Below, piece after piece: positions 25,895-53,415 of a stretch of DNA of 55,155 nt; position 1 is the first letter of the stretch, and the number at the start of each line of letters is the position of its first letter. Below the pieces are notes generated by a model, which saw only the letters and a program-made list of their open reading frames with translations, was not told the origin of the DNA and ran no database searches. Source of the stretch: Bacillota bacterium (GTDB lineage: Bacteria > Bacillota > Clostridia > Christensenellales > CAG-917); NCBI GenBank assembly GCA_050873585.1, contig JBNMJA010000002.1, positions 1-55,155 on the forward strand, given 5' to 3'. The translations under genes and the position numbers were made by a program.

Positions 25895-25923
25895 AAAAAG
25901 CCTCGCCGATGGCGAGGCTTTTT
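25895..25923 (-). terminator. Intrinsic terminator of the giant gene
   Basis: aaaaaGCCTCGCCgatGGCGAGGCttttt, lying 28 nt past the stop codon. Confidence 0.8.
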
Positions 25924-25950: not shown

Positions 25951-28900
25951 TCAGATTTCAACCATTCCGGTCACTGCTTGATATTGCGGAATGGTTTTTC
26001 CCGCTGCAATGATAACGTCACTACCGTTCTTCCAGTCGGCATCTGCCGTCGTTGTGGTAAGCACCGTGCCGTTGTTGTCAACGACCGTGCCGATTGCCGC
26101 GTAGAGTTTGTAAACGATCTTGCGGTCGGACGACGTCGGGAGCGTGAACGTTCCGCTCGTTGACGAGAACATAACGTCATAACTTGCTTCAAGAGTCGGA
26201 TTGGTCGTACTTGCAGTGGAAACATACGCTTTGCCGAACCAGACAACGTTGACCGTCACACTTCCGACAGTGTAAGTCGTCTTGAGCGTCTTTCCGCTGC
26301 GAAGCGAACTTGCCGCAGGCGCAACGGGTGTTACGTTCCCGTTGATTTGCGTGATTCCGACGGTGACACGCTCTTGGTCTGCAAGTTGAACGATTGCGTT
26401 TCTGCCGCTTGCACTGGTGGTGATACCGTCTGCCGATACGGTGTATTGTTCGTCCGCAGGCATTGAAACGATTGCGTAGTAGAACTCAAGCGTTTCGTTT
26501 GCAATTGCGTTGTACACTTCTTTGCCATCTTCTCCGACCTTGATATTGCCGGTTGCCGCATCGAATTCGGGCGTTGAAACGCTGAACGTTGCAATGTAAG
26601 AGAACGGCATCGTCAATCTCTTCGGATTGTTCGGATCGATACCGAACGGGCTTGCCGCAACGCTGTTCTCAACCGTCGTTGAATATCCGCCGGATACCTT
26701 CGTAAGAAGCGTGTTGCCGTCTGCATCTTTGCCCGTGGTTGCCTCTTCGAGTTTGTTGACAATCATTCTCTTGACGAGGAACGGAATCTTGTACTCTTGT
26801 ACGTTGCCGTCAACGCCGATGAGTTTTGCTGTGACGTAAATCACGCCGCCGGTGTACTTGGGTCTGAATTCGTCGAAACTCCAGACAAGCAAACGACTTG
26901 TGCCTTTCGTCTTGTATTCCACCTCTGCGGTTTCAGCCTTACCGTCTACGATCTTGCCCGTGCGCTCTTTGAACTTGAGCGAATCGGGCATCGTCGGCTT
27001 GATATACTCGTAAGGATTGATATAGGTCTTGTCGGTTGCAAGAGCGTAACCCGTGAGTTTTTGAAGTTCACTGTCGCTGACAATGCTTTCTACGCTTCTG
27101 TCAAGAACTTTGACGGTGAATCTGATGCGTTGCGTACCGATTTCGTTGACCGATGAAGCGTCGCTTGCCTTGTAGTTATATTCGCCGCCGTAGTTGACTA
27201 TCGCATAGGCATAGTACTCGCCGCCTGCGTAAGTCACGTTGACACCGCTGAAGTCCCAAACCACAGGCACGTCGACCTTAGTGCCGTTTGCAAGCGTGAC
27301 TTTGAGGCTGGTCGGGAAGTTGGCGTAATCTCTGTTGAGTTCGGCAGTCGTAAGCTCGACGTATTCACCGTTTACGAGTTTGTACGTTCCGTCGAGATTG
27401 TTCTTGACGTAACCGCTCGTTGCAACGGAGGATTTCTCGTAGCGATCGCCGCTATATCCCGTCTTTCTTGCAAAGACATTGCCGTTAGCATACGGATCGA
27501 TCTCGAAGATTCCGTTCTTGTAGAGTGCGTACGTATCGCCTTCAACGAGTTTTGCTTCGCCTGTCAATCTGCTGTTTGCGATATGCACCGTTACGTCAAC
27601 GGTCGTACCCGTGACGTTGCCTTGCGCTCTGCTTGCGAGCGTTGCTTCGACCGCTACGTTGCCGCCTCTGTAGGTGTATTCCGCTTTCTCTGCATTCCAC
27701 TTGACGTCGAACGTTTGCGTGGTGACGTACGTGAACAAGTAGAGATCTTGTCCGTCCGCAGTCTTGAACGTCGTTGCGTCGATCGTATTCACGTCGCCGT
27801 CGAACAAGACGTAGTTCTTGGTATCTGCGTTGTAAACGTAGAACTTTACGTGTGCGTAATCGGATTCGGTGGCAAATCCGCCGTACACCGAATAGATACC
27901 GGGATATATCTCTCCGTCCGTATCGGTGAAGCCGTGGCGTTTGAGATACGTGCTCGTGTAGTCGTATCCGCTGCCGTTAGCGGTTCTGCCTTCGTTCCAC
28001 CATGCGTATGCGCTGACGAATTGTGCTCCGACGTAGTAGGTCGCTTCGGATGCATACTTAGCCGTATTGAAGACGGAAGTGTCACTGTCACGATCCACGT
28101 AAACGTCTTTGTTGTACTTGTAAGTGCCGACAGACATTTCTTTGTATGCAAGGTCGCTATTGGTGAGCGTAACCTTGGATACGCGGATCTTGATGGTCAT
28201 CTCGAATGCGTCCATGACCTCTTTGCTTTCGGAGTTCCAGACGTGAACGGTCATCGTTCTCTCGAGTGTTGCGCTAAGGTCTGCAAGGTCGCTTGCCTTG
28301 GGAGCATTTTCGTAAGTGATATAGTAGTTGCCGACGTCACCGTTTGCGAACGTGAGCGTCATCGTGTCGGGAAGTTTGTCTGCTCCGACGTATGCGAAGT
28401 GGTTGTAATAAACGTATTGCTCGGGCATACCCGTCGCCTTGTTGTAGACGATGTCGATGTATCTGCCGTCGCCGCTCTCGCCAACGAGCGTATCGGTTAT
28501 CGTCGAATACTTGCTCGAATCGGAGTAGAGATACTTAAGACCCGTGTCGTCGAGTTTGAGTTCTGCATCGACGATGGTGCGTTCAAGCACTGTGACAGGA
28601 ACGTTGATGCGTTGTTTTGCGAGCATATAACGCGTTTCTGTCTTCAACTCGAAGTTTGCGTCGGTCTTTCTCATAAACTCGAGGTAATCTTCGATCGTGA
28701 CGTAGTCTTCACCGTTGCCGATATCCGCAAGAACGTACGTGCCGTTTGCCTTTTCAACGGGTACGACAGCCGTTGCCATATATGCGGTGTTGCTCGCGCC
28801 ACTCTTGATGAGTTTGTCAACGTCGGACCAGTCGAAGCGTGCGTCGAACACGTCGCCGCCCACGGTCGTGATTGACATAACGTTTGCAAGATAGGACGCG

Positions 28901-31900
28901 TCTTTGTGCAAGAACGTATCGACGACGATCGAACGGTTCTCGTAATCGGACATATACATTATGCTTCTGTTGAGAACGGTCACTGTGATTTCGCCCGTTT
29001 CGACGTTTTCATTCTTGCCTGCGTTGTATCTGTATCTCACGCCGACGGTGTACTTCTTGCCGAAGTATTGCGAGATGTTTGCATAGAAGTCCTCATCGCC
29101 GAAGTCGTATTCAACGGTGACGAGTTGATCTTGCACTGTCTTGTCGGCGTCTGCACTCTTGACTTTGACGAGTTGCTTGCTTCCGGACTCGAAGAGCGTG
29201 CTCTTGATTCCGTACGGATCGAGAACGTATTTCTCGCCGCCTACAAGTTTTTCGATGCCTGCGCTTGCGACTTTGACTTTGGCCGTAACGTCGCTTGTGA
29301 GTGCGTCGGAGGAGATCGTGAGAGTCATGTTGCCGTCAAATCCCGCCGCCGTGTAATCGTCGCTCCATGCGAGCGCGACCGATATCTTCTTGTCGTTCAC
29401 GTTGAGCGTGGTTGACTTGATCAAGCCGCCGTAGAAGTGATCTGCATCGATATCGACGCTGAAACCATTCTTGCTGTCGCCTGCAATGCCGTCAAGCGTG
29501 AATTCGTTGTTGATCTTGAACGTGAAGTCTTTCACGACGGTTTCACCGTTTGCCGATTGTCCCGTGACGTACGCTTTGCGTGTGAACGAGCCGTTTGCGA
29601 TTTCTTCTGCAGTCGGCATACTCGTATCGAGCCAGTGGAGCGGTACGTTGTTATGCGTCGTTTCGCCGATCTTGACGTTTGCGGTGGTTGCAAACGTGAA
29701 TTTGTCGAACACGTCATACGCTTTGAGTTTGCCGTCGGAATCATACATGCCGTCGGGTTTTACGTCAACGCTCGAATTGTATCCGCTGACGTAAATTCTT
29801 GCCGTGAACGCGTCTGCGCTCGGATAGCGAATGGAGAGCCCGTCGAAGAAGAAGTACTTGCGTTCAACGTAATCTCTGCCGTTCAACTCTTCCTTGTTCG
29901 GTGCGGAGTAGTCAATCCACTTGACTTCGACTTCGGTTTCGCCCTTGCCTTCGCTTGCGGTGACCTTTGCCGTGCTAGGCAACTTCCACTCGTCAAAGAC
30001 GTTGTAGGAGAGTTGAATCGTATCTTCGCCCACACCTGCGACCTTGCCGCCCGTGGCGGTGAGCTTGCTCTCGCCGTCAACGAACTTGCCGTCTGCAAAC
30101 GTGTAGTCGGGCATATTGATTCTGAACGAAACCATCTGTCCGCCGATCGTCATATACGCTGTCTTTTCAACGCCTTCGATGCTCGCAGAGGACACTATGC
30201 CGTCAAACGATTGTACGTATGCGATATACGGCTCGCCCTTGTCGAGCGTTACGAGCACAGGCGTGCCGTCGATTGCATCGCCCCAGTTGCTTGTCTTGAA
30301 GTAATCGCTCGGATTCTTTGCGAAGTTGATCGGGTCAATGCCGTATGCAACGCCGTCGATTTCATGCGTTTGTTGATATACCGTGCCTTTGTAATTATTT
30401 ACATTAGCAAGTGCTTCTTTGAGGATGTCGAGTTTTGCTTGGTCATCCGCATTCGCTCTCACGTACGCCGCAACGTCGCCTATATCCTCGTTGTAGAAGA
30501 AGTTGACCGACTTGACGGTTTGCTTCTCGACGCTGAGTTTGAGCGTTATCGTTTGTGCGGTGTAGATTGCATTGCCGTTTTCATCCGATTTGCCACTGTT
30601 GACAAGCGCGAGTTTCTTGCCGTCTTTCGTGCCGTCAAGCGTCGCATATGCTTCGACTTGAGCGTAAATCGTGCCGCCGTCAAAGATATTCTGCTCCGCT
30701 TTAAGCTTCGTGCACGCCGCGTTGGTGTAGTACTTCACCGTGCTCCAGTCGGGGAACATCGTGTGCGTCGCAGTGCCGAAAGATACGGAGAACGATTGAT
30801 AGTTCTCATTCTCGTACCACGTCGGATCAAGCGTGTCTTCGTGATCCACGTTGACAGCAAGCGTCGTGGGCTTGAGTGCGCTTACTTCAATCGGAATGTA
30901 AACAACTTGCTTGCCGCTGTAATCCGTGCCGATCGTGAGTTTTGCATAGAGCGGATACGTTCTTTGATTGGTGTATCCCTCGTATGTGATCTCGTCGGAC
31001 GTGAGGTTGTGTACGCCGTTATTGTATGCGTCGTAGTAGGTTTCGCCCGCTTTGATGAACGGCGCTTCCACTTTGAGTCCGTTGCCGACGGTCATCTTTT
31101 CTTCGGACTTGTTGCCGCTTGCGTCTTTAACGTTGAGCGCAAAGTTGCTGCCGAGAGATGCCACGGTGATTCTGTCGTACGAATACTGGTCGAACGTGAT
31201 TGCCTTTGACATAGAATCGTACACGAACGGTTTGACGACGATTCTCACGTTAACTTCTTGCGCAAGTTTTCCGGTGTAGGTTTTTTGCTGTCCTACGAAT
31301 CCGGACTTGTCTTCACCTAAGGTCTTTTTGGTGACCGTGGTGGAAATGCTGAATCTCTGTCCGCCGACTTTTGCCTTGACGGTCACGTCAACGCCCTTGT
31401 AATAGTCGTATCCAACGATATCGCCGTTGTCGTTTCTGTGGGCAATCGCGTCAAGTGCCTTTTCAAGTTCTGTCAAATCCCACTCGACGTCATAGCCGTT
31501 CATATTCTTGCCTGCGACGTTCTTGCTGTTGATAAACTTGAATTGATTGACGTATTCGACGAGCTTTTGAGTGTCGGCATTGATATCCATTGCTTTAAGC
31601 TCGAGAACCGTGGAGTAATTGCCGTCGTTATCACGCGCGTTGGTGAATTTCTCTGCCGAAGCCGTATCGATTTCTCCGTTCGCATGGGCCTTCATCATCT
31701 GCGTGAGATGCGATATCTTGTAGTTCTTTGCGCTGAGTTCGATCGAACCGTTGACAGCCTTGCCCAAGCCCCATTGATATGTGAATCCGACTTTGACGGA
31801 GTTGCTTTCGGAATCCGTGTTCCAAGAAGTCGAACCTTGCCAGTCGTATGTGAATTCATCCGTGTTCCAGTCAATCGTGCCTGCGGGGAATTGCTTGCCG

Positions 31901-46900: not shown

Positions 46901-49900
46901 TGACCTTCGATGTAGACCGCTATTATATTCTTAATTACTGTATCATTGTCGTTTAACGTAATCTCAAGAACGATATTAGTGTCGTTCGGCTCGTTGAGCG
47001 CAAGGTTTGCGCCGAGGCTGAGGCGAATATCGTATTCGATATCGTCGTACATATCGAGTCCGAGTTCGATTCCGAGATTTTCGATAAACAAATCAAGGTA
47101 ATTTTCAATGCGAATTTGTTCTTTTTGTCCCTTGATCTTGAGATCGAGTCCGAGATCGACGTTGAGTGAAAGCGTGTCGAGATTTTCGGCAGTCGTGTAG
47201 ATAGTCGAGTCGAAATCTTCGGGAAGCACTCCGCCCTCTTTGCCGAGAGCAAGATTGATTTCGCTTATTTCAAGACCGATATAAACGGGAGAAATCTCCG
47301 CATTGAGTTGGAGATTGTAATTATTCTTCCACGCAAGAGCAAGATAACTTCTGTCCGAATTGAGTTTGATGAACTTTTCGGGATCGACTTGCTTGCCTGC
47401 AAGCATTTGAACGAGCGTGACGATAAGCCCTTCCGCAAAATTGATTTGCACGCCTTCGGAGCCTACGCCGATATACCCGATGATTCCGCCGAGCACTGAG
47501 CCGATAATACCCATAAGGTCGATTCCGCCGCTCTCTTCCTCCGCCATAGTCGTTGCGCCTGCGTCGGAAGAATTGCCGCCGCTAATCAAGCCGCCGAGCA
47601 ATGCTCCGAGGTCGATATTTGCAAGTGCGACGTGGAAATCGTTGCTCAAATCGAGATAAACCGTGCTCACTGCATTGCCTTGAGCGTTTTCGCCCGTGCT
47701 TTGCAAACGAAGAGCAAGGATAACGTGTTGGATCTTGTCTTGATTGATCATTCCGTCGATATCGGCAATACTTCTGTTGTAAATTTCGATTGCGATATCG
47801 CTGTGGGACGCTATGTACGCAATATCGAGCAAACTTGCTTTGGTAAAGACTTTGTCGTTTGCAAATTGATTCGCGTTTTCGTCCGTGACGTTGACTTTGA
47901 CGTATGCGTCGTCAACGAGGATATAGCCTTCTCCTCTGTATGCGAGGTCGGTGACTTCGCTCAAAGCGATTCCGCCTGCGACGTATTGTTTGAGGTAAAC
48001 GTCGCCGACAAACTTCTTGTCGCTCGTCAAATCGCGCTCTTCGTCGTTAAGAAGAACGTATTTCGTGCCTTCGAGTTTGTAAACTTCGGCAAATCTTGCA
48101 AGATTTGCAAGTTCGGAGTTCGCATACTTCTTGAACACCGCGTTTTGCGTGAGATCAACGGGGACGTCGGGATTGAGGCGCGCGTTGAGTGCGATGCGGA
48201 ATCCGATTTCCGCACCCGCTTCGACGGGAACGCTGTAGGTGAGAAGAAGTTGTCTGATGAACGAGTTGAGTTGCGGATTGCTTTCGTCAAGGAAAGATGC
48301 TATCCATTCGCCGACTGTCCAGGACGTGTTGCCTTGGTGTGCGCCGACGCTGAAAGTGCCCTTGACTTCCGCATAAATGCTTGGGATCGTGATATCGCCG
48401 TAGTCGTTGAAGAGGGTGATGTTTTCGTACACGTCCTCGTCTTCGCTGGTGACGTATTGAGCCATCGTCTGCTCTGCTTTTCCGTCACGCACGATCTTGA
48501 TAGACTCGATTGTGCTACCGCCGATGGTAAGCTCGAGCGGATTGAGCGTTGCGCCGTCTGCGCCCTTAACGGTCGTGCCGATATAGATTTCCGCACCTGC
48601 GATTTTTTGTCCTTCGTCGGTGTTGATGTCAACGGCAACTCTCAAGGGTTTGTTGTCGAATTTGTCTTTTACGCTTGCCCATGCAAGTTGCGCCCATGCC
48701 GTGATGTCGCTTGCGTCGATGCCGATGACCTGATACACGATATCCGTCAAGCCTTTTGCGATCTGCAACTTGACGTTGTCGGAAGAGAGCGTTGCGATAA
48801 TATCGAGAGCAAGTGCTCTTCTGGCAGCCGTATCGTCCTCACCCGTTACCGCAGCAGTCAATGCGTCCGCCGTTGCCGTGCCGTTGACGGAAACAGTGGT
48901 GTCTTTGACGAGCATGGAAAGAATGAGTTCATAAAGATCGATTTCGGTCTGAATCTTTCCGAGTCCGAAATTGCTTGCGTCGAGATAAAGCACGCCCGAA
49001 GTATAGTAAATTCCGAGCAAGACTTTGCGATCGAGTCCGAATTTTTTGCCCGTGAGCTCGACGAGCAACTCGCTGTGGTTGTTTTTGGTGTTGATTTGCG
49101 TCTCTTTGAAGAGCAAATATTTCAAAATCGGAGAAATATCGAGTTGTCCCGCAACGCGCAACTCGTAATTGATATCCATTTCCGAGTCGAATGCGAGAGT
49201 CGCTTTTGTTATATTCTCTTCAATAAAGTTTCCGTTTGAATCTTTATAATAGAGTGCGCCCGTGTACGTTGAAGGAACGGGTGTCTTTTCGATTTCTATA
49301 TATTCGCCGTTTTCGTTGAGCCAATATTTGCCTTCACCGAACACGAGTTCTCTCGAACCTTGGTCTGCGGTAAAATCGATGCCGAGCGTAAGATCGAGCC
49401 CTACGAACGGATATTCCAAAATCTCGGTGAAATCGTCCTTTTGAAGGTTGTCGTTTTCAAGATAATCGGTCGGTTTGTCGTTCAACCCTGCGGACAAGCC
49501 GTTGAGCGACAAATCAAGGCTGACGTTGTTGCCCAAAGAAAGGAATATGCCGAGTTGGAAGTCGGGCAAATAGAGACCGTCGTTGAGCGCAATGCGGATT
49601 CCGCCGTCAAAATCGGTGCTTGCAAACTTGATCTTAACGTTGTTTTGCACTTCGCGATAGTCGTTGAAGAAGTCGTTGCGATAGTACTCTTTTCCGCCGA
49701 ACGCTTTGTACGGAGTGAGAATTTCGGTCTTTACGTATTTTCCGGTTGCGATATTGAACCAATACGCGCCGTTGTCTGTCGCATTGTACTCGCCGCTGCC
49801 GCTGTCGTAAGAATAATACTTGCCGCTCTTTGCGTAATTCTCGGGTGCGGCTTGCGCGTTCTTTGCGACGTATTGTTTCGTTTCGATATCAAACCAATAT

Positions 49901-52900
49901 TCGCCGTCGGCATTCTCTTCACCCAAATAATACTTGCCGCTCTTTGCGTAATTCTCGGGTGCGGCTTGCGTGCTTTTTGCGATGTATTGTTTCGTTTCGA
50001 TATCAAACCAATATTCGCCGTCGGCATTTTCTTCACCAGAATAATACTTGCCGCTCTTTGCATAGTTTTCGGGTGCGGCTTTCTCACTTGTCGCAACATA
50101 TGCGCCCGTTGCAACGTCATACCAGTGCGTGCCGGTTGCTTCGGTGGCTTCGATATAACCGTTGTTTTCCTCGTTAAACGTGTAGAACTTGCCACTCTTT
50201 GTGTAATTCTCGGGTGCGGCTTGTGCGCTTTTTGCTATATATGCACCCGTTGCGATGTCGTACCAGTGCGTACCGCTTGCAGCAACGGATAACGTATAGA
50301 ATTTTCCGCTCTGCGTATAGCCTTTGGGTGCGGTTTGCGCGCCTTTTGCTATATATGCATCCGTCGCGATGTCATACCAGTGCGTACCGTTTGTCGCGGT
50401 GGATAACGTGTAGAATTTGCCCGATTTCAGATAGAATTCGTCACTATTTCTGCTCGTATCGGCAAAGGAAACGTAGTCGCCGTTCGGAGCGAGCCAATAA
50501 GTTTGGTCATAACTGAGTCCGATAATGTTGAGAACTTTGTCGAAAAGTCCGGATGCAAGCATGACCTCGAAGGCGTGGTTGCCGAGATTGAAACCGTCGA
50601 TTATTCCCGCCACGAAGCCGAGAATCGAGTTGACGTCGAGTCCGCCTTCTTCGTCAGACGTCGGGTCATCTGCAACTGCCGCTTCTTGAGCGTCGTTTTG
50701 AGAGCCGTCGCCGCCCACTCCGAGCATGTCGAGCAATTCTTTGGCGTCGAGTTTGATCTCTTTGACGCTGATGCAAAGCAAATCTGCTTTCAGGTATACC
50801 CAACCGTCTTGCAAGTAGATTGCAAGAAGAGGATTATTGCCCTCGACGTCCGCTCTTCTGGTGATTGCAATCTTTGCAGAAGATTTGAGGAGAATATCGA
50901 GGATTGCGCTCGTGTCAAGACCGCCCGTAAGGTCGATGTCTGCGTTGACGTCGAGTTTAAGTCCGCCTTCGATATTGCCAAGTTCGAGCAATACGTTGAC
51001 GAGAACGCCTTTGAACAAATTGCCGAGTTCCTGATCGGGAAGATCAACGGAAATTTCCGCAAGTTTGCCCTTGAGCGTGTCTATATCGATCGAAAGACCC
51101 GTCGAGAGATTGACGTGGAGCAAATCCGTGTTGAGCGTGCCGTTCTTGAGAATAGGCAGGTATGCGCCCGGATTGTCCGCAAGATCTTGTTCGAGATCGG
51201 TGAAATTCTTGTCAAATTGACCTTGATTGATGATTTTACCGAAGGTAACGTCGACGCCGAGTTCGAGTCCGATCAACGGATCGAGCGTGAAGTCGGTGTG
51301 CGTTTCGTTGTATTCGCGAATTCCGAGCGTTGCGTCCAACTTGATTGATTTCTCTTGTTGTGCGCCCTTGTTCGTATAGGTCAGGCTTGCTTCGGAAATG
51401 GGGATATCCGCACCGATATTGTCGCCTGTGAACACCATTCCGAAGATGGTTTCGAGCAAATCTCTGGTGATATCGAATTGGATACCGTTGATGTTGAATA
51501 TGTTTTCGTCCATATCGATATTGATATGGTCGAGTATCGTGCTTACGAGTGCCAACACGTCAACGCTTCCGTCGTCGTCGGCAGATTCAAACGCGCCGTG
51601 TTGAATGATAAGTTCGCCGTTGTCGACGAGCGCTTGTTGGATCGCTTGCGCTTTCATACCGTCGGCAAAATAATCGCGTGCCGCTTGAGAAGTCGCGTCG
51701 CCTTTGAGTCCGTCGATTGCACCCTTTATCGTGTCGAAAAGTTGATCGATGAGATCGCCGAGCAATTGATTGACATTGATATCGTCGATCTTGAACTTCG
51801 TTCCGTTAGAGCCGAGCAAACCGCTTGCGTCGATATAAACGCCGTTCAAACTGCCCTTATAAAGCGCGCTGAGACGTTCTCTGTTGTCTCTGCCGAGAAC
51901 TCTGACGGCAAGTTTGGTTTCCCCCGGGTTTCTGGTGTTGATTTCTCCCTGGAGGGTAATCGTAAGTTGAACGACGCCGCTTGCAAAGTCGATTTCTTTT
52001 GCAAACAACGGTTGAAGCGCCGCAAGCAATTCGGCGTCGAGATTTTGTTTGAGGAGGTTTGAAATGAGCGTGCCGAAAGAATCCACCACGTTGTCGATGG
52101 ACACTTTCTTTTGCGCAAAGTCGAGTGAGAGAGTTATTGCGCCGTCAAGCGTGAGGAAGGAATATTGCTGTGCGGTTTCAATGGCTTCGAGCAAAGTTTT
52201 ACCGTCGGATCCGGTACGCTCTGCGAGAATACCCTTGACGTCGAGATCGGGCGTGCCTGCGAATTCGGCTTTCGCATAGCCCAAATCGATACCGAATTCG
52301 GATTGGAACGTGCCGTACTTTTCTTGGATATCGGGAATTCCGCTCGAATTGAGGTTTACGTCAATGCTGAAATTGGTTTCTTTGAGCGCCCCGTTGTAAA
52401 TGTCCGCTTCGAGATAAAGCGCAACGCCTGCCAAAGCACCGATTTTGCCAAGATCGAGTCCGAGCACGTCTTTGACGAGCCCGATAATATTTTCGGGAAT
52501 AAGACCTTGGACAAACGGAATGAGCGTCACGATAAGTCCGAGATCACAAGGAATACGCAAAACCTGACGACCGTTACCGTAGTCCACGAGCGTGCTCTTG
52601 CTTGATCCGAACAGTATGTTGACGAGCAATTCTTCAACCGTCAAATGGGCTATGTCGATTTTGATCAGACTGTTGACAAGTCCGCCGATATCGTAACCCA
52701 TAATGGTGTCGTAAAGGATTGAGGAAAGATTGAGTTGTTCGAGCGCGTCGGAAAATCTCGTCACGAAACTGCTCATATTGATGGTGTCCGTGTACACGAC
52801 GTGGACGCCGTCGCCTTTCTTGATTCCGCGCATATCTGCAACGAGTTTGCCGTCATAATAGTATGCGCCGAAAAGCATCGAGCCTTTTCCCGCCTTCGCC

Positions 52901-53322
52901 ATATCCGTGATGGTCTGACGATCGAGAGTACGACCTGCGATTTCGTCTTTTCCTAATTTCCAGAATTCAACGAGGATTTGACTGTTTGCGTCGTTGACTC
53001 TGTCAATCTTGCCCGCAAAACGAGCAACGATAAGCGAATCGTAAGAATCCTTGGCAAATCCGAGCACGAACGCCGTATCGACGTTTATGTACTGTTTGTC
53101 CTTTTCCGCACCGGCTTCCAAAAGCGCTGCGTCTTTGAACAACTTCCATGCGTCTTGCGGTCCTATGTACTGCGAATTCGTCGGTTCGTCGTCGGGCGTC
53201 GGCGTAGGAATAACCGGATTGTCGACGTTTCCGCCGCCTGCATGATCGCACGCCACCATGCCGAAAACCATCGTGATAATCAGCACGAGCAACAATACGA
53301 GCGATAACTTTCTCATTCTCAT
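25951..53322 (-). CDS. Giant (~9,120 aa) secreted or lipid-anchored modular surface protein of unknown family
   Basis: A single open frame of 27.4 kb. ATG 53322 has GGAGGAG 5 nt upstream. The N-terminus MRMRKLSLVLLLVLIITMVFGMVAC is signal-peptide or lipobox-like. The track's TTG at 53415 coincides with the -35 box. A consensus promoter lies upstream and a terminator downstream. See the findings for internal architecture. Confidence 0.9.
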   Translation of the reverse strand: MRMRKLSLVLLLVLIITMVFGMVACDHAGGGNVDNPVIPTPTPDDEPTNSQYIGPQDAWKLFKDAALLEAGAEKDKQYINVDTAFVLGFAKDSYDSLIVARFAGKIDRVNDANSQILVEFWKLGKDEIAGRTLDRQTITDMAKAGKGSMLFGAYYYDGKLVADMRGIKKGDGVHVVYTDTINMSSFVTRFSDALEQLNLSSILYDTIMGYDIGGLVNSLIKIDIAHLTVEELLVNILFGSSKSTLVDYGNGRQVLRIPCDLGLIVTLIPFVQGLIPENIIGLVKDVLGLDLGKIGALAGVALYLEADIYNGALKETNFSIDVNLNSSGIPDIQEKYGTFQSEFGIDLGYAKAEFAGTPDLDVKGILAERTGSDGKTLLEAIETAQQYSFLTLDGAITLSLDFAQKKVSIDNVVDSFGTLISNLLKQNLDAELLAALQPLFAKEIDFASGVVQLTITLQGEINTRNPGETKLAVRVLGRDNRERLSALYKGSLNGVYIDASGLLGSNGTKFKIDDINVNQLLGDLIDQLFDTIKGAIDGLKGDATSQAARDYFADGMKAQAIQQALVDNGELIIQHGAFESADDDGSVDVLALVSTILDHINIDMDENIFNINGIQFDITRDLLETIFGMVFTGDNIGADIPISEASLTYTNKGAQQEKSIKLDATLGIREYNETHTDFTLDPLIGLELGVDVTFGKIINQGQFDKNFTDLEQDLADNPGAYLPILKNGTLNTDLLHVNLSTGLSIDIDTLKGKLAEISVDLPDQELGNLFKGVLVNVLLELGNIEGGLKLDVNADIDLTGGLDTSAILDILLKSSAKIAITRRADVEGNNPLLAIYLQDGWVYLKADLLCISVKEIKLDAKELLDMLGVGGDGSQNDAQEAAVADDPTSDEEGGLDVNSILGFVAGIIDGFNLGNHAFEVMLASGLFDKVLNIIGLSYDQTYWLAPNGDYVSFADTSRNSDEFYLKSGKFYTLSTATNGTHWYDIATDAYIAKGAQTAPKGYTQSGKFYTLSVAASGTHWYDIATGAYIAKSAQAAPENYTKSGKFYTFNEENNGYIEATEATGTHWYDVATGAYVATSEKAAPENYAKSGKYYSGEENADGEYWFDIETKQYIAKSTQAAPENYAKSGKYYLGEENADGEYWFDIETKQYVAKNAQAAPENYAKSGKYYSYDSGSGEYNATDNGAYWFNIATGKYVKTEILTPYKAFGGKEYYRNDFFNDYREVQNNVKIKFASTDFDGGIRIALNDGLYLPDFQLGIFLSLGNNVSLDLSLNGLSAGLNDKPTDYLENDNLQKDDFTEILEYPFVGLDLTLGIDFTADQGSRELVFGEGKYWLNENGEYIEIEKTPVPSTYTGALYYKDSNGNFIEENITKATLAFDSEMDINYELRVAGQLDISPILKYLLFKETQINTKNNHSELLVELTGKKFGLDRKVLLGIYYTSGVLYLDASNFGLGKIQTEIDLYELILSMLVKDTTVSVNGTATADALTAAVTGEDDTAARRALALDIIATLSSDNVKLQIAKGLTDIVYQVIGIDASDITAWAQLAWASVKDKFDNKPLRVAVDINTDEGQKIAGAEIYIGTTVKGADGATLNPLELTIGGSTIESIKIVRDGKAEQTMAQYVTSEDEDVYENITLFNDYGDITIPSIYAEVKGTFSVGAHQGNTSWTVGEWIASFLDESNPQLNSFIRQLLLTYSVPVEAGAEIGFRIALNARLNPDVPVDLTQNAVFKKYANSELANLARFAEVYKLEGTKYVLLNDEERDLTSDKKFVGDVYLKQYVAGGIALSEVTDLAYRGEGYILVDDAYVKVNVTDENANQFANDKVFTKASLLDIAYIASHSDIAIEIYNRSIADIDGMINQDKIQHVILALRLQSTGENAQGNAVSTVYLDLSNDFHVALANIDLGALLGGLISGGNSSDAGATTMAEEESGGIDLMGIIGSVLGGIIGYIGVGSEGVQINFAEGLIVTLVQMLAGKQVDPEKFIKLNSDRSYLALAWKNNYNLQLNAEISPVYIGLEISEINLALGKEGGVLPEDFDSTIYTTAENLDTLSLNVDLGLDLKIKGQKEQIRIENYLDLFIENLGIELGLDMYDDIEYDIRLSLGANLALNEPNDTNIVLEITLNDNDTVIKNIIAVYIEGQNIYFDFGDLGREPFYLEKTNISEFVCDAIVKLLGDIKSQTNNSEASTASDESTLSADEQMQVVLNIADGKLSALVMQNVLVGLIATLTSNGDGDLKIDEILEKLDLDIQVGVDLQLDPSISLDVNLDSNLIALGVSLGNIDVATGKNENGAYGTIKNKARKGIDKFVKLSETEKDTYKGDRYNLVGGKYVKADGGEYRSYYKGLQEAHIIALDLSLIVDYYASATYVLVTDKKALESFSPQDRYSLNYDGRFVQDNNGSYIRDGFAFDELLNLVLGMDGLQDILATMLPQIRINTDNEEIGFEIEKDKFSVGDLLKRLGLNLMLSDKMDDGFKLDVKARLNLQAMGLEDISKIDLGNLDVNTILKGLEASVGIDFDYEHEQSKAYLNIYLLNGDVYVDLDGVGGPRVQVGLLELLGRLGVELGGSSDASTADDTTGAGGLDVAKLLNTVVSKLVLSAAPWKADSNINKIGYLGVFLRANFINDLFSMLFNEEVNSENTVLDEAQSGIYLYPQTDELFKGYLDNALALQLKLALANKKDPIKDERGNTKPFTFDLKLGVDVKVGLESVNDYQTLLDNDERLEFISLDDYIANILALIGGFRGENYQRETELADNAIYYTFNESEGGEYLLKTGMYRKPNFNVDANGAFVLDEATGEYRLIREGEVLEEGTKRYSKEDLTGVTMYARSYATVQTSAEDGKQYAYYVNYVQSEDDDAVYVYDAQNDIYVNRNDANAPQSTVFYKRVLEAMTVTEKDAEGNVITRNALAKEVKLYKKCGQETYQDQNISLSVSGLIYFNSASAEVVNAGGLLPNAFRDMIINLQTLSAFNAGIGLRVSANIDLAALDLQGLASGGSFGEFIDNSDLSKVELAIQFIEVDSQGYFAKYDTAKGTRDGNDKVLGGMYLSGGTFYLDLTGVVGTAENYSKIENFVDFAKKVIEKLGSIGGDKENNGAQTASDEQVLRSATRDAVVLLAYSDAQFQIQITKALIAFVLATFMPDLGSLEEVFDVFNVSLGVDLGQPVYKSLTDLKNSENIEDQDLYNKFMTDEAYKQSRYAYYETEDLSGTVATDKYYVVGGKYYQAATTDVYEVTVDEATGTVKPIDGAVKTRYADGKLPADKTFGVYLNGAYTVITGTVDGKYVHSNANYYAKVAGIDDPISLRSYRMYRMDANGNESVTDTYIAGDTYVRYNGEERDIQELRSRLFGYVKDENGDWYRTINLYSSMSDFYLGLDVAIGCVNMGLKLGGIELGVGAGNNLLPAYIRDGKAHSRVEGGKEIEYTDELTEADKEKYEDIPTNMFYDTIITVGFSVELELGITEGTLDFGKILSSVVGDLTGVVVEMPSTTKGYSSAHFRLDVSLMVDIYDLTKSELKIELINVTETGYESLWLGAYYVNNTIYLNLEEAFNIQKVAIGGLNIAELLKDIIIDFDDEELFVAGNRAKDASTDEASVAADANGSDISLSDKELALSMLINKDLFTLKLGDKLFDTILEYIPEDLLGFDIKDLFYQEINGGLQVELDTSDSINLSVDVALGLDGDRYNKDSDYSESTAASIAEKVKKGTDKYYVFRQSNDGEYVKESAGSNFVRAIKPDDSSEIKVASNRYDKYLVKCDESTNKLYLLKVLANGKGDGSELLDTMKRSMLEGEEKSVAVYKHVAGAAANKSYVKDGGKYDTTLKLSLAIKNLDIAFTNSRTYVLSGDELAEYTNMDDVDRFTLSETIDITTQFKTGEDNDIDLSAVLQAFFPSLTDDQLLVIKAQSDKGGDIDRSLQLVVDVDVQVAALLNFMRTELVKYAGDDDQFDGDMDLFTVIDLLKKVIENIDTTQLAKLIADIASYVNLSVRLQTKGGNDSDYHDMLGIYMVGGTFTLLDESKGELDENSENYVDPSERFDHYFETKNGSYYRDTNGKYSYIRSSEYSGTRYSYDSSYCYKNVEGRYKRENGGLFIDLSYFNIPSLRVDANEIRKLVSGLLALNASDAMTADDTTDDGSGSGISLPLVKDDTILGYIRTFAYGLQITSRYIKVLAQADYINSILSLVMGENAIQFDDDEFVNQPNVTLYTDNTRYSYTSAQDIVNEFITKYDAAIDESERKALVKDIEKTLTKSKYLFKVTQYTGEGAQNKGIYYKAADGAFVQKSEMSETERTAKDNEVISGKAKYYDVTRVDVYIRLQDGNPVSDKNAVLYADATQTQINNCEKVAVLQDRRVRVPKLYEKIGENNYQAVDFKYSVVTPLEARNEFLSVNLYLWNHKVSIAINAPEIGVTKFQYVTGKDALNDSKYQIEEIAAGARYVNTDEEIYTSVDKVTDGIDNWAFDYYEKGTFSTTKYQDNPRFYEYKDKYIEINPDTLFVKDGDGKYQKATADWDHMPDFIGEMENDSSKEYYIDATSAYVRVQRVFIYKKEVYNTEKKVLLSADDEANDTDFFIKVQQNSSVEKPDFSKPEYADYAYKEYVDTDNLYYISLALRGSLFLQSGKIYLPYADYAEVYKSIRNVEPTFDLIKSKGIAYKKFQGDYVKVSEKDDLATLNNANGLFVLVNSDLDDKYSGINEALGDVLGSILGAMTGKFQIAEDMTFNVYFSLRLNLGFKLYILPSFGIDIRDLDVAIDVWGEQNDLLDDNTGKNYVTSEDRDANNYKYKLLDGTKPHILGIYYDNDQDTGKAGLYVDAEALLGKDAKLFVDMSEYSLEDVLTGLVANIGSNDAADASVASDPVADNNPDKQDPDAASLFINIFTNAIALNVTSGFAKVLLNELIADSASITSMLPNLKVYLKQNLNPYDITIGAILFNERGDIPVLNLGLNIQGLNGVADESSSIEFGRKEDILNMQQGSNAIFYYANFYRDNDNKDYSNYYGKNYNNKDYVKLIHDETTGFDYIENADGTRGALYSNGTTTVGPEDRYMKAAPVMSEVLTSRQTAYDGKLYTDVDGIYMLVYERLNDIAGNNHLGEEYSEYRNLVSNNQFRSFTGTLYTVDDNGNFVRVNKDELQGFTGEGNLQYVLASDYPSANGNEKGTGKEVVYNGQTYYRIDPNGNGYTDMDEADAFKTAHANVKVYKQVIDFTNYTKALALNLGDLLGGGTFDVSSVLSGLQSVELGLNLDIRTTLDDVINWTYQFTKFINDKTICDYLYFIATSLKNNAEFQSLIGLNLDLKVYLQLANLVKMISGDTSVGILQVLEGAKIYLELTYETNFHGEEKPKALLWVEIRDGKLYLNIDASQIGDIVGWGDFFSYGVVEGLDLSSILGTSASSASAQAFTAADDEEANTGLIPANIWSVLNVVLGRLLIANDFITVGLNETLIADLIGMLADSDSEILQGIGEFLPKLRTTDTKDTSGITINFYGNSPSIDINLGFKVGTLYYETVANFNAMYGASGKYFNGSNWSGTKFVKDANGEYTQGTGADDDNTYVLVSTDDYALVAYAYPAWGGDTYDYENGEFVKHTATETKGAYLKQGDFAIAISLGKIYARVNKDFSVDKDEKFADKNADGTIRYEYVESENGEYVKDGEDYRLATAVDTGTRYAKKAAYGNYVRLQNATAHLELSIDISLYGSAPQDGSANEIDLSEILDLVMGLINPNSAVSGSTLKLNIVNELGNDKGAYLKLDLVANIDVENFKVDLGLQLNKYTAGATAARTLLGIYLIDNAIYVDLSGILGNTAKVAVTDINLDGLLEGVLGKFLSEASGEESTQAQTANSGDIDTIIDTMKDYAYFMINVTPQKLLLQLNSDLINAIYRKIMAIRGLDSTKDLLPDIGDILFRMDATGGKTEFSLNLRLSDGLYFCLDIPAASITKDISESVATHFDLVTTSKKVFKQLTQAELEKDASQTKYVKNEKGEYVEDKGAVDGSKTYYKSVNATVPAGYIEILALDLEALVNGTGTFNISDLNLPTIGLTLTLDLTMTSKNLKPGQEGYKESLAGWVQELLANVLGGQSILGKFSELTFVDANTLKDSDGKVHDGKVYILNSEGAYEVFTGTSYDNKTNYYKYTLADVNITMASEAINLTIDIAANINIAPILAYGIGGILFSDLAVDIKAGDPINSTILSVYYLGSSRLMKKGNDNKWQLGVGTSGLYTEDEIYSDAIYIDASGLGLGKIKFQGIAGLLGATPGYGAGTASDAVASADASTSDADASADAKAAASGSALYLQIDIENGRLGMSFDNAFISTLIDIIGLDLGDITLPPIKSVKLDVNLGAGGLESINLNAQLDSVGTGANVAIKNFALGFGQSKVDSEKLIESVKTGYAGLTFSKTSGIMSLIQNVIDNLKPGLNLEIQNTVWSAYTGWVSLGIVGVPRIYSGYEHSTITLSGKKDYTATNLVEDASNLSAKSYKLLLGLGLNRASIKDTVGLNVIFGGNNVFLSDIKVGGNTVDLVSGIPAIGAYLKCLDLGTLLADAFPLKLVSGTDGDDATYEYPSAKTAADTSTQASSGWNDPVKKESYSYPANLENLIKSVDVNLFNNNGYWPYFAGAKEVSNGAGKISLKVELNKDAYNELIIMVSCILMNLMRNGDNNADSKSSGSNVYFVNVKDIGSATNISPSDKPYGTTTKPITAFFDGLDTLLAKNATTQEKVDYVEPYMRSIPFALLKWAMECIVGPAINMDGIWGTIQRLAGDTLENLTKLIGGILPLPFASGTINPSINIYIDINPTASDYGCNSGETVAPGIQAIEIMVNGKKNGIGTEMLYNEKVGSGTGDFNFATRPTKQTSNVKDAWDFFMLRITPYSINHADYKTGLLYFDESESAGNIGVEPPTEIVIEDPATRKGYAISGGARKDFELRDSFFLDETLFPQKATVTFPIIIDGKQMTSYNSGSQYQDATGTFIVWDGASVDLTAANSETADEKGRRLAGYVYGYALNTVLYAIPVYVTNDKEVQSVKGLYRNDDGSYGTKALNIDIDSDSSKFMAELPNLVQISFSTGKATFGTYLKDSEGNMLHAVINPISGAPSENGYQILVQPTQEEIDKGAEANVNADGNKYVLMPAYVAGLVTEQDAKGNTVYKTFKARNASGEEVEYYVLSRSNLPTGKQFPAGTIDWNTDEFTYDWQGSTSWNTDSESNSVKVGFTYQWGLGKAVNGSIELSAKNYKISHLTQMMKAHANGEIDTASAEKFTNARDNDGNYSTVLELKAMDINADTQKLVEYVNQFKFINSKNVAGKNMNGYDVEWDLTELEKALDAIAHRNDNGDIVGYDYYKGVDVTVKAKVGGQRFSISTTVTKKTLGEDKSGFVGQQKTYTGKLAQEVNVRIVVKPFVYDSMSKAITFDQYSYDRITVASLGSNFALNVKDASGNKSEEKMTVGNGLKVEAPFIKAGETYYDAYNNGVHNLTSDEITYEGYTNQRTYPLYAKLTIGTDYSGKQVVYIPIEVSALKPTTLAVNVDHEDTLDPTWYENENYQSFSVSFGTATHTMFPDWSTVKYYTNAACTKLKAEQNIFDGGTIYAQVEAYATLDGTKDGKKLALVNSGKSDENGNAIYTAQTITLKLSVEKQTVKSVNFFYNEDIGDVAAYVRANADDQAKLDILKEALANVNNYKGTVYQQTHEIDGVAYGIDPINFAKNPSDYFKTSNWGDAIDGTPVLVTLDKGEPYIAYVQSFDGIVSSASIEGVEKTAYMTIGGQMVSFRINMPDYTFADGKFVDGESKLTATGGKVAGVGEDTIQLSYNVFDEWKLPSTAKVTASEGKGETEVEVKWIDYSAPNKEELNGRDYVERKYFFFDGLSIRYPSADAFTARIYVSGYNSSVDVKPDGMYDSDGKLKAYDVFDKFTFATTANVKIGETTHNNVPLHWLDTSMPTAEEIANGSFTRKAYVTGQSANGETVVKDFTFKINNEFTLDGIAGDSKNGFSVDIDADHFYGGLIKSTTLNVNDKKISVALAWSDDYTAAGFDGNMTLTISSDALTSDVTAKVKVASAGIEKLVGGEKYVLDPYGIKSTLFESGSKQLVKVKSADADKTVQDQLVTVEYDFGDEDFYANISQYFGKKYTVGVRYRYNAGKNENVETGEITVTVLNRSIMYMSDYENRSIVVDTFLHKDASYLANVMSITTVGGDVFDARFDWSDVDKLIKSGASNTAYMATAVVPVEKANGTYVLADIGNGEDYVTIEDYLEFMRKTDANFELKTETRYMLAKQRINVPVTVLERTIVDAELKLDDTGLKYLYSDSSKYSTITDTLVGESGDGRYIDIVYNKATGMPEQYVYYNHFAYVGADKLPDTMTLTFANGDVGNYYITYENAPKASDLADLSATLERTMTVHVWNSESKEVMDAFEMTIKIRVSKVTLTNSDLAYKEMSVGTYKYNKDVYVDRDSDTSVFNTAKYASEATYYVGAQFVSAYAWWNEGRTANGSGYDYTSTYLKRHGFTDTDGEIYPGIYSVYGGFATESDYAHVKFYVYNADTKNYVLFDGDVNTIDATTFKTADGQDLYLFTYVTTQTFDVKWNAEKAEYTYRGGNVAVEATLASRAQGNVTGTTVDVTVHIANSRLTGEAKLVEGDTYALYKNGIFEIDPYANGNVFARKTGYSGDRYEKSSVATSGYVKNNLDGTYKLVNGEYVELTTAELNRDYANFPTSLKVTLANGTKVDVPVVWDFSGVNVTYAGGEYYAYAIVNYGGEYNYKASDASSVNEIGTQRIRFTVKVLDRSVESIVSDSELQKLTGYALATDKTYINPYEYIKPTMPDSLKFKERTGKIVDGKAETAEVEYKTKGTSRLLVWSFDEFRPKYTGGVIYVTAKLIGVDGNVQEYKIPFLVKRMIVNKLEEATTGKDADGNTLLTKVSGGYSTTVENSVAASPFGIDPNNPKRLTMPFSYIATFSVSTPEFDAATGNIKVGEDGKEVYNAIANETLEFYYAIVSMPADEQYTVSADGITTSASGRNAIVQLADQERVTVGITQINGNVTPVAPAASSLRSGKTLKTTYTVGSVTVNVVWFGKAYVSTASTTNPTLEASYDVMFSSTSGTFTLPTSSDRKIVYKLYAAIGTVVDNNGTVLTTTTADADWKNGSDVIIAAGKTIPQYQAVTGMVEI
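25954..32613 (-). other. C-terminal ~2,200-aa region of the giant protein: array of beta-sandwich (bacterial Ig-like) units
   Basis: At least 12 recurrences of a strand motif end in Trp: TFIVWDG, GTIDWNT, YDVEWDL, MFPDWST, VEVKWID, VPLHWLD, VALAWSD, ARFDWSD, FDVKWNA, VPVVWDF, LLVWSFD, VNVVWFG. They are spaced about 80-250 aa apart. Confidence 0.5.
49681..50499 (-). repeat. In-frame tandem repeat array (about 7 units of 38-49 aa, 114-bp core period) inside the giant gene
   Basis: Units read SGK[FY]Y....G.[HY]W[YF][DN]I[AE]T..Y[IV]AK..QAAPENY[AT]K. The two central 114-bp units (about 49825-49938 and 49939-50052) differ at only about 8 positions by eye. Confidence 0.85.
53248..53322 (-). other. 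Signal peptide with lipobox-like cleavage site (…FGMVA|C) of the giant protein
   Basis: The n-region is MRMRK, the 18-residue hydrophobic core is LSLVLLLVLIITMVFGMV, and A-C follows. The -3 position is Met, not the canonical Leu/Val/Ile, so type II cleavage is only probable. Confidence 0.6.
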
Positions 53323-53386
53323 AATCTCCTCCGAAACATACGCCTCTACGCGTGTAGCGCATATGTGTAGATTATTATACAGTCCA

Positions 53387-53415
53387 ATTATACGTTTTTT
53401 TTCGCTGTTTGTCAA
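53387..53415 (-). promoter_or_regulatory. Perfect consensus sigma-A promoter of the giant gene
   Basis: Minus strand reads TTGACA (53415-53410), a 17-nt spacer (aacagcgaaaaaaaacg), then TATAAT (53392-53387). A second TTGACA lies at 53426-53421 and a second TATAAT at 53379-53374. Confidence 0.75.

Follow-up and report, generated by a model that had tools for sequence, protein, structure and literature searches.

What does an uncultured gut bacterium make from a single 27-kb gene, and is such a gene real? The window analysed here is a 55,155-nucleotide (nt) stretch of contig JBNMJA010000002.1, assigned to the Clostridia, and on its minus strand one frame at 25951-53322 runs uninterrupted for 9,123 sense codons from an ATG at 53322 to one stop (9,124 codons). 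The predicted product has a mass of 1000 kDa (1.0 MDa), an isoelectric point (pI) of 4.49, 1311 Asp and Glu against 798 Lys and Arg residues, and 16 Cys. As judged from its sequence and its relatives, this giant protein would be a lipoprotein built largely of fourteen diverged modules, and the likeliest role for it is a structural or adhesive one on the cell surface.

A separately transcribed gene with a lipoprotein signal

The first-pass annotation, made from the letters alone, had described a monocistronic gene for ~9,120 amino acids (aa) with a perfect consensus promoter, a strong Shine-Dalgarno (SD) sequence, a lipoprotein-like signal peptide and its own terminator. All of these were recovered:

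53387-53415, minus strand: sigma-70-type promoter, TTGACA-17-TATAAT, 12/12 consensus positions
53323-53382, minus strand: 5′ untranslated region (UTR); a conserved stem-loop sits directly before the SD GGAGGAG
53248-53322, minus strand: lipoprotein signal peptide (aa 1-25), MRMRKLSLVLLLVLIITMVFGMVA then C, with Cys25 the predicted lipidated N-terminus
53149-53247, minus strand: Gly/Pro/Thr/Asp-rich tether (aa 26-58), DHAGGGNVDNPVIPTPTPDDEPT..., read directly
25895-25923, minus strand: intrinsic terminator, GCCTCGCC-ATC-GGCGAGGC, with an 8-bp GC stem, a 3-nt loop and T5

A mechanical list of open reading frames (ORFs) had given the same frame as 25951-53415 (minus strand, 9,154 codons) from a TTG at 53415-53413. 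We rejected this start, as the −35 hexamer, TTGACA, begins with this very TTG; translation truly starts at ATG 53322, separated from GGAGGAG by ATT (3 nt). For comparison, a scan with N-terminal patterns only, taking one genome per species, yielded 25 related loci. The promoter is kept in relatives, where a second invariant element, GTATAATAATCT, comes after it and precedes the stem-loop of the 5′ UTR. The stem-loop is conserved across 17 related loci, with compensatory changes in 4 of its 10 pairs. The leader had no match in Rfam; its stem-loop may act as a 5′ hairpin that stabilises the 27-kb mRNA, or it may have a regulatory role. A consensus promoter, a strong SD and this conserved stem-loop together suggest abundant, stable expression. 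At the far end, the terminator lies 28 nt past the stop (−27.9 kcal/mol); it had been missed by an automatic pattern scan because its flanking A and T runs pair too. The next gene downstream has its own promoter at 25725-25698 and its own SD, and the giant gene is therefore monocistronic.

Bacterial lipoproteins are marked by a positive n-region, a hydrophobic core of 7-22 residues and a lipobox, [LVI][ASTVI][GAS]C, with an invariant Cys at +1. The giant protein conforms in its n-region (MRMRK) and in the hydrophobic core that follows (LSLVLLLVLIITMVF; Kyte-Doolittle maximum of 2.9 over aa 1-30), and its lipobox reads MVAC, with a non-canonical Met at −3; LVAC, FAAC, VGCG and IACN occur in relatives. 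The Cys of the lipobox is kept in 25/25 related loci and in essentially every full-length family member, and aa 1-30 hold the only transmembrane (TM)-like stretch in the whole protein. These features point to an extracytoplasmic protein with a predicted N-terminal lipid anchor. The earlier statement that no anchor was recognisable is accordingly withdrawn, since the lipoprotein signal is itself the predicted anchor, while its picture of an exported, acidic protein with fewer than about 20 Cys holds; acidity and few Cys are in line with a tendency of exported Firmicute proteins.

A motif scan of the giant protein found no LPXTG (no LP.[TSA]G anywhere), RTX nonapeptide, HExxH or choline-binding-type motif, and the genes of the window include no sortase, type I secretion system (T1SS; ATP-binding cassette (ABC), membrane fusion protein (MFP) or TolC component), TpsB or type VII secretion system (T7SS) gene. 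The absence of a secretion partner, as first noted, is correct for the window, but it poses no puzzle: lipoprotein export needs only Sec plus Lgt and Lsp, which are general housekeeping genes.

The frame is intact and old

Compared with the closest relative found (L002, from the human-gut metagenome-assembled genome (MAG) UMGS1170), the nonsynonymous and synonymous divergences were 0.049 (dN) and 0.33 (dS), giving a dN/dS of 0.149 over the first 4,231 codons of the giant gene, with 0.07-0.19 in every 500-codon block. In most MAG relatives the DNA covers roughly the first 4,200 aa. In 21 of the 25 loci the frame runs on without a stop through all of the available DNA (2,900 to >4,200 aa), and in 2 others it is open, but on very short contigs. 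The exceptions are L008, a scaffold with Ns, and L014 (CP091723.1), a long-read MAG chromosome of 1.65 Mb whose orthologue has three frameshifts. Set against an intact short-read relative that is 96% identical (L013), L014 has 23 small gaps in 14 kb, and the neighbouring acyltransferase gene is split by a frameshift as well; the L014 frameshifts are probably uncorrected long-read indel errors.

Collinear full-length orthologues (P0012-P0020; 7,286-7,924 aa) align with the giant protein at 26-30% identity, starting at aa ~3-24 and reaching aa 9088 or beyond, and one distant cluster has 39 members, of which the listed full-length ones are 5,587-5,596 aa long and come from many independent contigs. 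The orthologue alignment shows even conservation along the whole length of the giant protein. Selection over the full length, as first proposed, is thus backed by this evenness and by dN/dS, the latter showing purifying selection over the first 4,231 codons. Taken together, dN/dS, open frames in relatives, collinear orthologues and independent assemblies practically exclude the pseudogene or chimera that the first-pass annotation had named as grounds for refutation. One giant locus was found per genome record by the N-terminal patterns. All of this indicates that the giant gene is real, functional, single-copy and chromosomal.

The protein evolves quickly: it is 29% identical in a relative in which metG is 69% and the SPFH neighbour 63% identical, and ~20% identical in a further one. 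Relatives at 29% identity and below are flanked by the same genes, which argues for vertical inheritance. By these comparisons the gene is old, vertically inherited and fast-evolving.

Long plus-strand ORFs lie antisense to the giant gene, among them those at 41239-46545 (up to 1,768 aa), 29437-31209 and 35473-37197. TTA, CTA and TCA account for only 48 of its 9,124 codons; because these codons are rare genome-wide, a codon-aligned antisense frame seldom hits a stop. We therefore rejected coding potential for these ORFs as a codon-usage artefact.

Fourteen modules fill the first two thirds

Self-BLASTP of the giant protein gave almost no internal similarity; the repeats were seen by eye and then by profile. 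The module array (M0-M13; 34282-53145, minus strand) consists of fourteen diverged copies of ~275 positions each and takes up the first ~6,350 aa. Its members, all on the minus strand, were located by profile:

M0, aa 88-350, recovered by the family-wide profile
M1, aa 389-676
M2, aa 702-966
M3, aa 1289-1581
M4, aa 1621-2028
M5, aa 2035-2277
M6, aa 2382-2643
M7, aa 2919-3158
M8, aa 3416-3678
M9, aa 3822-4207
M10, aa 4629-4931
M11, aa 5189-5482
M12, aa 5602-5914
M13, aa 6118-6347

The copies are 18-24% identical to the reference copy, in agreement with the initial impression of highly diverged modules, not near-identical repeats. Leave-one-out profiles (13 copies tested) scored 11-47 bits against a shuffle maximum of 6-12, two of them marginally so (12.9 and 11.4 bits). 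The module plan runs from a hairpin, 'LLGIYL..G.lYvDLSGLG', through a helix and an acidic Ala/Ser/Thr-rich loop to a second helix. Predicted secondary structure consists of long antiparallel strands (7-14 residues) with 4-5 helices per module, the acidic loop lying between two helices; the loops are predicted to be disordered and are rich in Ala, Ser, Thr and Asp. Each module has its own orthologue in relatives, as seen in the collinear alignment.

The modules had no match in Pfam, NCBIfam, PHROGs or PDB, and sequence and profile searches of PDB with a module, a two-module segment and both halves of the protein returned nothing meaningful. These observations point to modules that are ancient, individually conserved and of a novel mixed alpha/beta type.

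A motif within the loops, [DEQS]A.[TVS]A[ADSTN][DEG], has 8 matches in the whole protein against 0.2 expected. Seven of the 8 fall in module loops (aa 880, 2185, 2568, 3585, 4113, 4836 and 5381; aa 2568-2574 correspond to window positions 45598-45618). In orthologues the motif reads EAVTAAD; it is shared with close ones and blurs to 'ATA'-type A/T/S-rich loops in distant members. Its role might be that of a cleavage, modification or metal site, or of a hinge.

Variable inserts, a conserved junction and an Ig-like array

The remaining features of the protein are the following:

49726-50502, minus strand: lineage-specific insert (aa 941-1199), ~six 38-43-aa Tyr-rich repeats (GKFYT..GTHWYDIATGAYIAK..APENY)
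31633-34281, minus strand: junction region (aa 6348-7230, ~900 aa), with NLFN.NGYQPY, LLPLPFASYD..PNPS.N.YIDL and IVWDASSVDL...RLAGYVYGYALN
26755-31620, minus strand: C-terminal beta-rich region with Big_4-like immunoglobulin (Ig) domains
aa 7235-7329, minus strand: Big_4-like domain, by iterated profile
aa 8304-8381, minus strand: weak Big_4-like domain, by iterated profile
aa 8497-8583, minus strand: Big_4-like domain, by iterated profile
aa 8648-8741, minus strand: Big_4-like domain, containing the Pfam Big_4 match at aa 8655-8710
aa 8763-8856, minus strand: Big_4-like domain, by iterated profile
25954-26754, minus strand: conserved C-terminal end (aa 8857-9123), ..VVWFGKA...YKLYAAIGTVVDNNGTVL..

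Tyr-rich hairpin inserts of variable length lie between modules and are the main source of length differences among orthologues. In DNA, the insert at aa 941-1199 consists of 114-bp tandem repeats at 49812-50081 (93% matches) and 50212-50418 (86%). This array, coding for 38-aa units (GKFYT..GTHWYDIATGAYIAK), is absent from most relatives and differs in copy number in L002 and L004, and we judge it to be recent. A kinship of the 'RY..DG.YVQD..G.Y' hairpins with Rhs/YD repeats was considered and rejected, there being no Pfam hit. The junction, for which Pfam and PDB gave no match, is among the best conserved stretches of the giant protein.

On ten tiles of the protein searched with E values up to 1, Pfam gave Big_4 (PF07532) as the sole match (aa 8655-8710; 33.1 bits against a cut-off of 22.1, E = 4e-8), placing the protein among Big_4-containing proteins, and returned no SLH, CWB2, toxin or Rhs domain. 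An iterated Big_4 profile found 4-5 copies, that is, three to four beyond the one in Pfam. NCBIfam and PHROGs found nothing on the ten tiles. The protein ends in ..QAVTGMVEI, lacking a sorting motif and a hydrophobic tail, and this end is conserved among orthologues. The motif scan, the Pfam tiles and the conserved C-terminus hence agree with the first reading in finding no LPXTG, SLH, choline-binding, RTX or toxin-tip element. Its claim of no recognisable family survives for nearly all of the sequence in Pfam, NCBIfam, PHROGs and PDB, but not for the Pfam Big_4 domain and the 3-4 Big_4-like domains. These same libraries gave no end-to-end profile hit to a characterised adhesin or S-layer family.

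An undescribed family of uncultured gut and rumen Clostridia

An exhaustive module-profile scan of 1.84 billion representative proteins matched only 130, of which 31 had E ≤1e-30; many were 5,000-7,900 aa long. Word-indexed searches with the N-terminus, the module profile and the orthologue profile gave only 4-5 fragments each. Fragmented assemblies and word-indexed searches hide giant proteins, and it was the exhaustive scan that recovered full-length relatives. The search of metagenome-assembled genomes that had been proposed at the outset, with its 25 loci, collinear full-length orthologues and conserved neighbours, shows that the protein is no orphan.

The family totals 640 module instances. 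Of the 24 members that reach 5,000 aa or more, almost every complete one has a lipobox and 14 modules (range 13-15), and module count is independent of member length (5,595-9,123 aa) and of divergence. We define the family by a lipobox, 13-15 modules of ~275 positions, the conserved junction and a Big_4-like C-terminal array; the window protein belongs to it, with 14 modules collinear with those of P0012-P0020. Pfam found nothing on the orthologue fragments. On 15 distant members it found Big_4 (6/15) and one Flg_new (Listeria-Bacteroides repeat), Big_4 being the sole Pfam family that recurs across them.

Public records name family members only as 'hypothetical protein'. The MAGs that carry the gene were obtained from human, mouse, buffalo and rumen samples, and their records bear the labels Clostridiales, Christensenella sp., Clostridia or Eubacteriales. 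A scan of viral contigs gave no relatives, and we found no description of a 14-module giant family in the literature. As far as these scans reach, this is an undescribed family of collinear giant lipoproteins, confined to one group of uncultured Clostridia from gut and rumen.

Four records (L004, L005, L017 and L026) carry the labels Anaeroplasmataceae, Phascolarctobacterium succinatutens or uncultured Bacteroides sp., which look wrong, for their loci match the window in synteny and the window protein at 52-68% identity. In P0027 (7,267 aa; L031 / L032), CarboxypepD_reg-like and SdrD_B-like domains lie between the modules and the Big_4-like region, and the family therefore accepts other beta-sandwich inserts.

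Comparison with known giant and surface proteins

Ebh, SasG/Aap and serine-rich repeat proteins, the giant adhesins of Gram-positive bacteria, are thought to form extended fibres with Ig-like or beta-sandwich domains; they have a C-terminal anchor (LPXTG/sortase or TM) and near-identical, copy-number-variable repeats of known Pfam families. The giant lipoprotein is like them in megadalton scale, acidity and probable Sec export, and unlike them in its predicted N-terminal lipid anchor, its 14 fixed, ~20%-identical modules of a new family and its lack of LPXTG. Of the hallmarks of an LPXTG adhesin, neither a C-terminal LPXTG nor a hydrophobic tail is present in the protein, and no sortase lies nearby in the window. 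Of those of RTX/T1SS adhesins, there is no nonapeptide, no Pfam hit and, in the window, no ABC, MFP or TolC gene.

S-layer and coat proteins of Firmicutes are acidic, Cys-poor, abundant and lineage-defining, with strong promoters and stabilising 5′ UTR hairpins. The giant lipoprotein resembles them in acidity, few Cys, promoter and 5′ hairpin, yet Pfam found no SLH or CWB2 domain; to our knowledge, a mass of 1 MDa together with a lipid anchor would be unprecedented for an S-layer protein. With Big_4 (PF07532) proteins it shares the domain, although Big_4-like sequence makes up <5% of its length.

Giant1-5 of Apilactobacillus kunkeei are extracellular proteins of 3,000-8,000 aa, predicted to be elongated, in a 1.5 Mb genome; Giant1-4 begin with a beta-solenoid that resembles the one in serine-rich repeat proteins, and the five-gene cluster shows recombination (PMC12863079). 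The likeness lies in a giant extracellular protein taking a sizeable genome share in a small-genome Firmicute; judged by the published description, the single gene, lipobox, 14 novel modules and Big_4 domain set our protein apart (PMC12863079). West-Roberts et al. (2023) described Omnitrophota giants with many TM regions and SecA-like domains, and gut Clostridia giants with RCC1, Listeria-Bacteroides repeat, YG, dockerin and leucine-rich repeat domains (bioRxiv 10.1101/2023.11.21.568195). The metagenomic origin is alike, as is, for some of them, an origin in mammalian gut Clostridia; none of their features occurs in the giant lipoprotein (bioRxiv 10.1101/2023.11.21.568195).

By its sequence, then, the giant lipoprotein fails the defining tests of the Ebh, SasG, serine-rich repeat, RTX and A. 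kunkeei Giant families, and the only groups that we can assign it to are the lipoproteins and the Big_4-containing proteins. The kind, a giant exported bacterial surface protein, is already known. New are the family of modules, their fixed number of 14, the confinement to a single uncultured gut clade and a predicted N-terminal lipid tether on a protein of such size.

What the giant lipoprotein may do

The explanation that we favour, at about an even chance of being right, is a constitutive surface fibre or coat with a binding function in its distal part. In this scheme Sec would export the precursor, Lgt would add diacylglycerol to Cys25 and Lsp would then cleave, leaving the N-terminus tethered to the outer face of the cytoplasmic membrane. 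The 14 modules would form a long stalk or sheet of fixed composition that carries the junction and the Ig-like array off the membrane, through and past the wall, and the resulting fibre or coat may bind glycans, particles or partner cells. Fixed module number and a chromosomal position shared by all but one of the relatives checked suggest a lineage-defining envelope component, not a copy-number-variable accessory adhesin. The consensus promoter and conserved 5′ stem-loop lean the same way, towards a structural component that defines the lineage, whereas the Ig-like array, Tyr-rich variable inserts and fast evolution lean towards interaction with external ligands.

If this explanation is true, a constitutive megadalton surface protein would dominate contact of the cell with host mucus, food particles, phages and the immune system. 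About 1.7% of a ~1.65 Mb genome (a size taken from one complete relative) is spent on this one gene, in carriers that are common yet uncultured in human, mouse and ruminant gut communities. Two thirds of the product belong to a domain family that has no counterpart in Pfam, NCBIfam, PHROGs or PDB. Fourteen fixed, ancient modules are an unusual evolutionary pattern for a giant repeat protein and make a clear target for structural biology.

Several points weigh against a surface fibre or coat. The window lipobox has Met at −3 (MVAC), where most relatives have LVAC, and the Lgt and Lsp genes do not lie within the 55-kb window. L014, the only long-read assembly of a relative, carries frameshifts and gives no proof of an intact frame. 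AlphaFold gave a predicted local distance difference test (pLDDT) score of 48 for one module, with 13 paralogues as the alignment, and a pLDDT of 54.5 with a predicted TM-score (pTM) of 0.34 for a two-module segment with 28 orthologue rows. Foldseek comparison of the low-confidence model with PDB returned only noise (major histocompatibility complex (MHC) class I, TbpB and LolB; E ≥0.018, TM <0.3). The library scans identified no function-bearing domain in the giant protein. Stalk geometry, surface exposure and ligand binding are all things that we infer. Finally, a universally kept architecture of fixed number would be unusual for an adhesin and may fit a structural scaffold or another machine at least as well.

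A tentative and rather unlikely proposal is that the 14 modules are a new fold family which builds a defined, clade-specific superstructure, not a generic adhesin stalk. The result might be a membrane-tethered envelope organelle, for instance a molecular ruler or a coat whose thickness is set; it might also be a conduit that hydrophobic cargo passes along, or a polyprotein giving a 14-part surface assembly.

An ordinary accessory adhesin such as Ebh, SasG or Bap, with a variable-length repeat stalk gained and lost between strains, would account for a giant, acidic, exported protein with Ig-like domains, for local tandem repeats that vary in copy number and for fast evolution. We nonetheless consider it unlikely, given that the number of modules stays at 14 in members 5,600-9,100 aa long, that the modules are ~20% identical with an orthologue each, that N-terminal patterns found one locus per genome record, in a syntenic position kept in all the relatives checked but P0027, and that neither LPXTG nor a known adhesin domain was found.

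The loops raise a different prospect, a polyprotein precursor that would be cut in the exposed acidic module loops into separate surface or secreted proteins, as in the processed giant adhesins of mycoplasmas. Every module has the predicted disordered Ala/Ser/Thr/Asp-rich loop between two helices, the loop motif is enriched (8 against 0.2 expected), and small, AxA-like residues after a Leu-rich helix are reminiscent of a signal-peptidase site (read directly). In distant members, however, the motif loosens into a less defined A/T/S-rich loop; neither the window nor the relatives' neighbourhoods have a linked protease gene, and the helix before the loop carries charges and is too short for a signal-peptide core. 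Conserved loops could equally be hinges, Ca2+ sites or glycosylation sites, and on balance we regard such processing as decidedly unlikely.

Fourteen sheet-wraps-helix units of the LolA/LolB or TULIP type, tethered to the membrane, might instead serve as a conduit or carrier that moves lipids or hydrophobic molecules across the envelope. Long predicted antiparallel strands (7-14 residues) packed with helices, a weak Foldseek list made up mostly of sheet-plus-helix platforms, including LolB (probability 0.35), and the fixed module number with a lipid tether are compatible with this. Yet the structural matches are all non-significant (E ≥0.018, TM <0.3) and come from a low-confidence model. Pfam gave no hit to AsmA, TamB, MCE, LolA or related families; AsmA/TamB-type bridge proteins in particular were not matched in the giant protein (AsmA, DUF490 or similar), whose module models have a pLDDT of 48-55. 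Nothing shows a second membrane to bridge in the carriers, and the C-terminal Ig-like array has no place in the model. We find this idea very improbable.

A polymorphic toxin or contact-dependent effector with a long delivery stalk would explain a large, exported protein but is hardly credible: orthologues keep the C-terminus conserved instead of varying it, searches that included Pfam found no signature of a toxin, Rhs/YD, PT-HINT or immunity gene, and the downstream gene encodes an SPFH/zinc-ribbon protein. An artefact, be it a pseudogene, a chimeric assembly or a composition-driven open frame, has next to no chance: the long ORFs on the opposite strand and the frameshifted long-read L014 might suggest one, but the former are explained by rare TTA, CTA and TCA codons, the latter has 23 small gaps against intact L013 and a frameshifted neighbour gene too, and a dN/dS of 0.15, collinear orthologues from many independent assemblies and the conserved promoter, SD, signal peptide and terminator all speak against it.

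Genomic neighbourhood

The giant gene sits among housekeeping genes (metG, a TatD-linked radical-SAM gene, ksgA, guaB and thrS). Its immediate neighbours are:

53838-54893, plus strand: membrane acyltransferase (HGSNAT_cat / Acyl_transf_3), upstream and divergent
24554-25669, minus strand: SPFH/Band-7 protein with three C-terminal zinc ribbons, downstream of the giant gene
23464-24534, minus strand: zinc-ribbon protein of 356 aa, following the SPFH gene

In 25/25 related loci the acyltransferase gene sits upstream, on the strand opposite to the giant gene, and it is also near the distant relatives P0017 and P0026, with other genes intervening. We did not accept a functional link between the two; adjacency alone says little because the whole neighbourhood is syntenic. 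The order acyltransferase ... giant ... SPFH, Gate, metG, TatD, radical-SAM, ksgA recurs around P0017 (giant protein 29% identical), and the same neighbourhood surrounds P0026 (~20% identical by alignment to the P0036 group). For P0018 the available contigs hold only downstream genes, and those match. The distant member P0027 has a different chromosomal position and is the sole exception among the relatives checked. The SPFH and zinc-ribbon pair is kept downstream of distant giant-gene relatives as well (L027 and L028).

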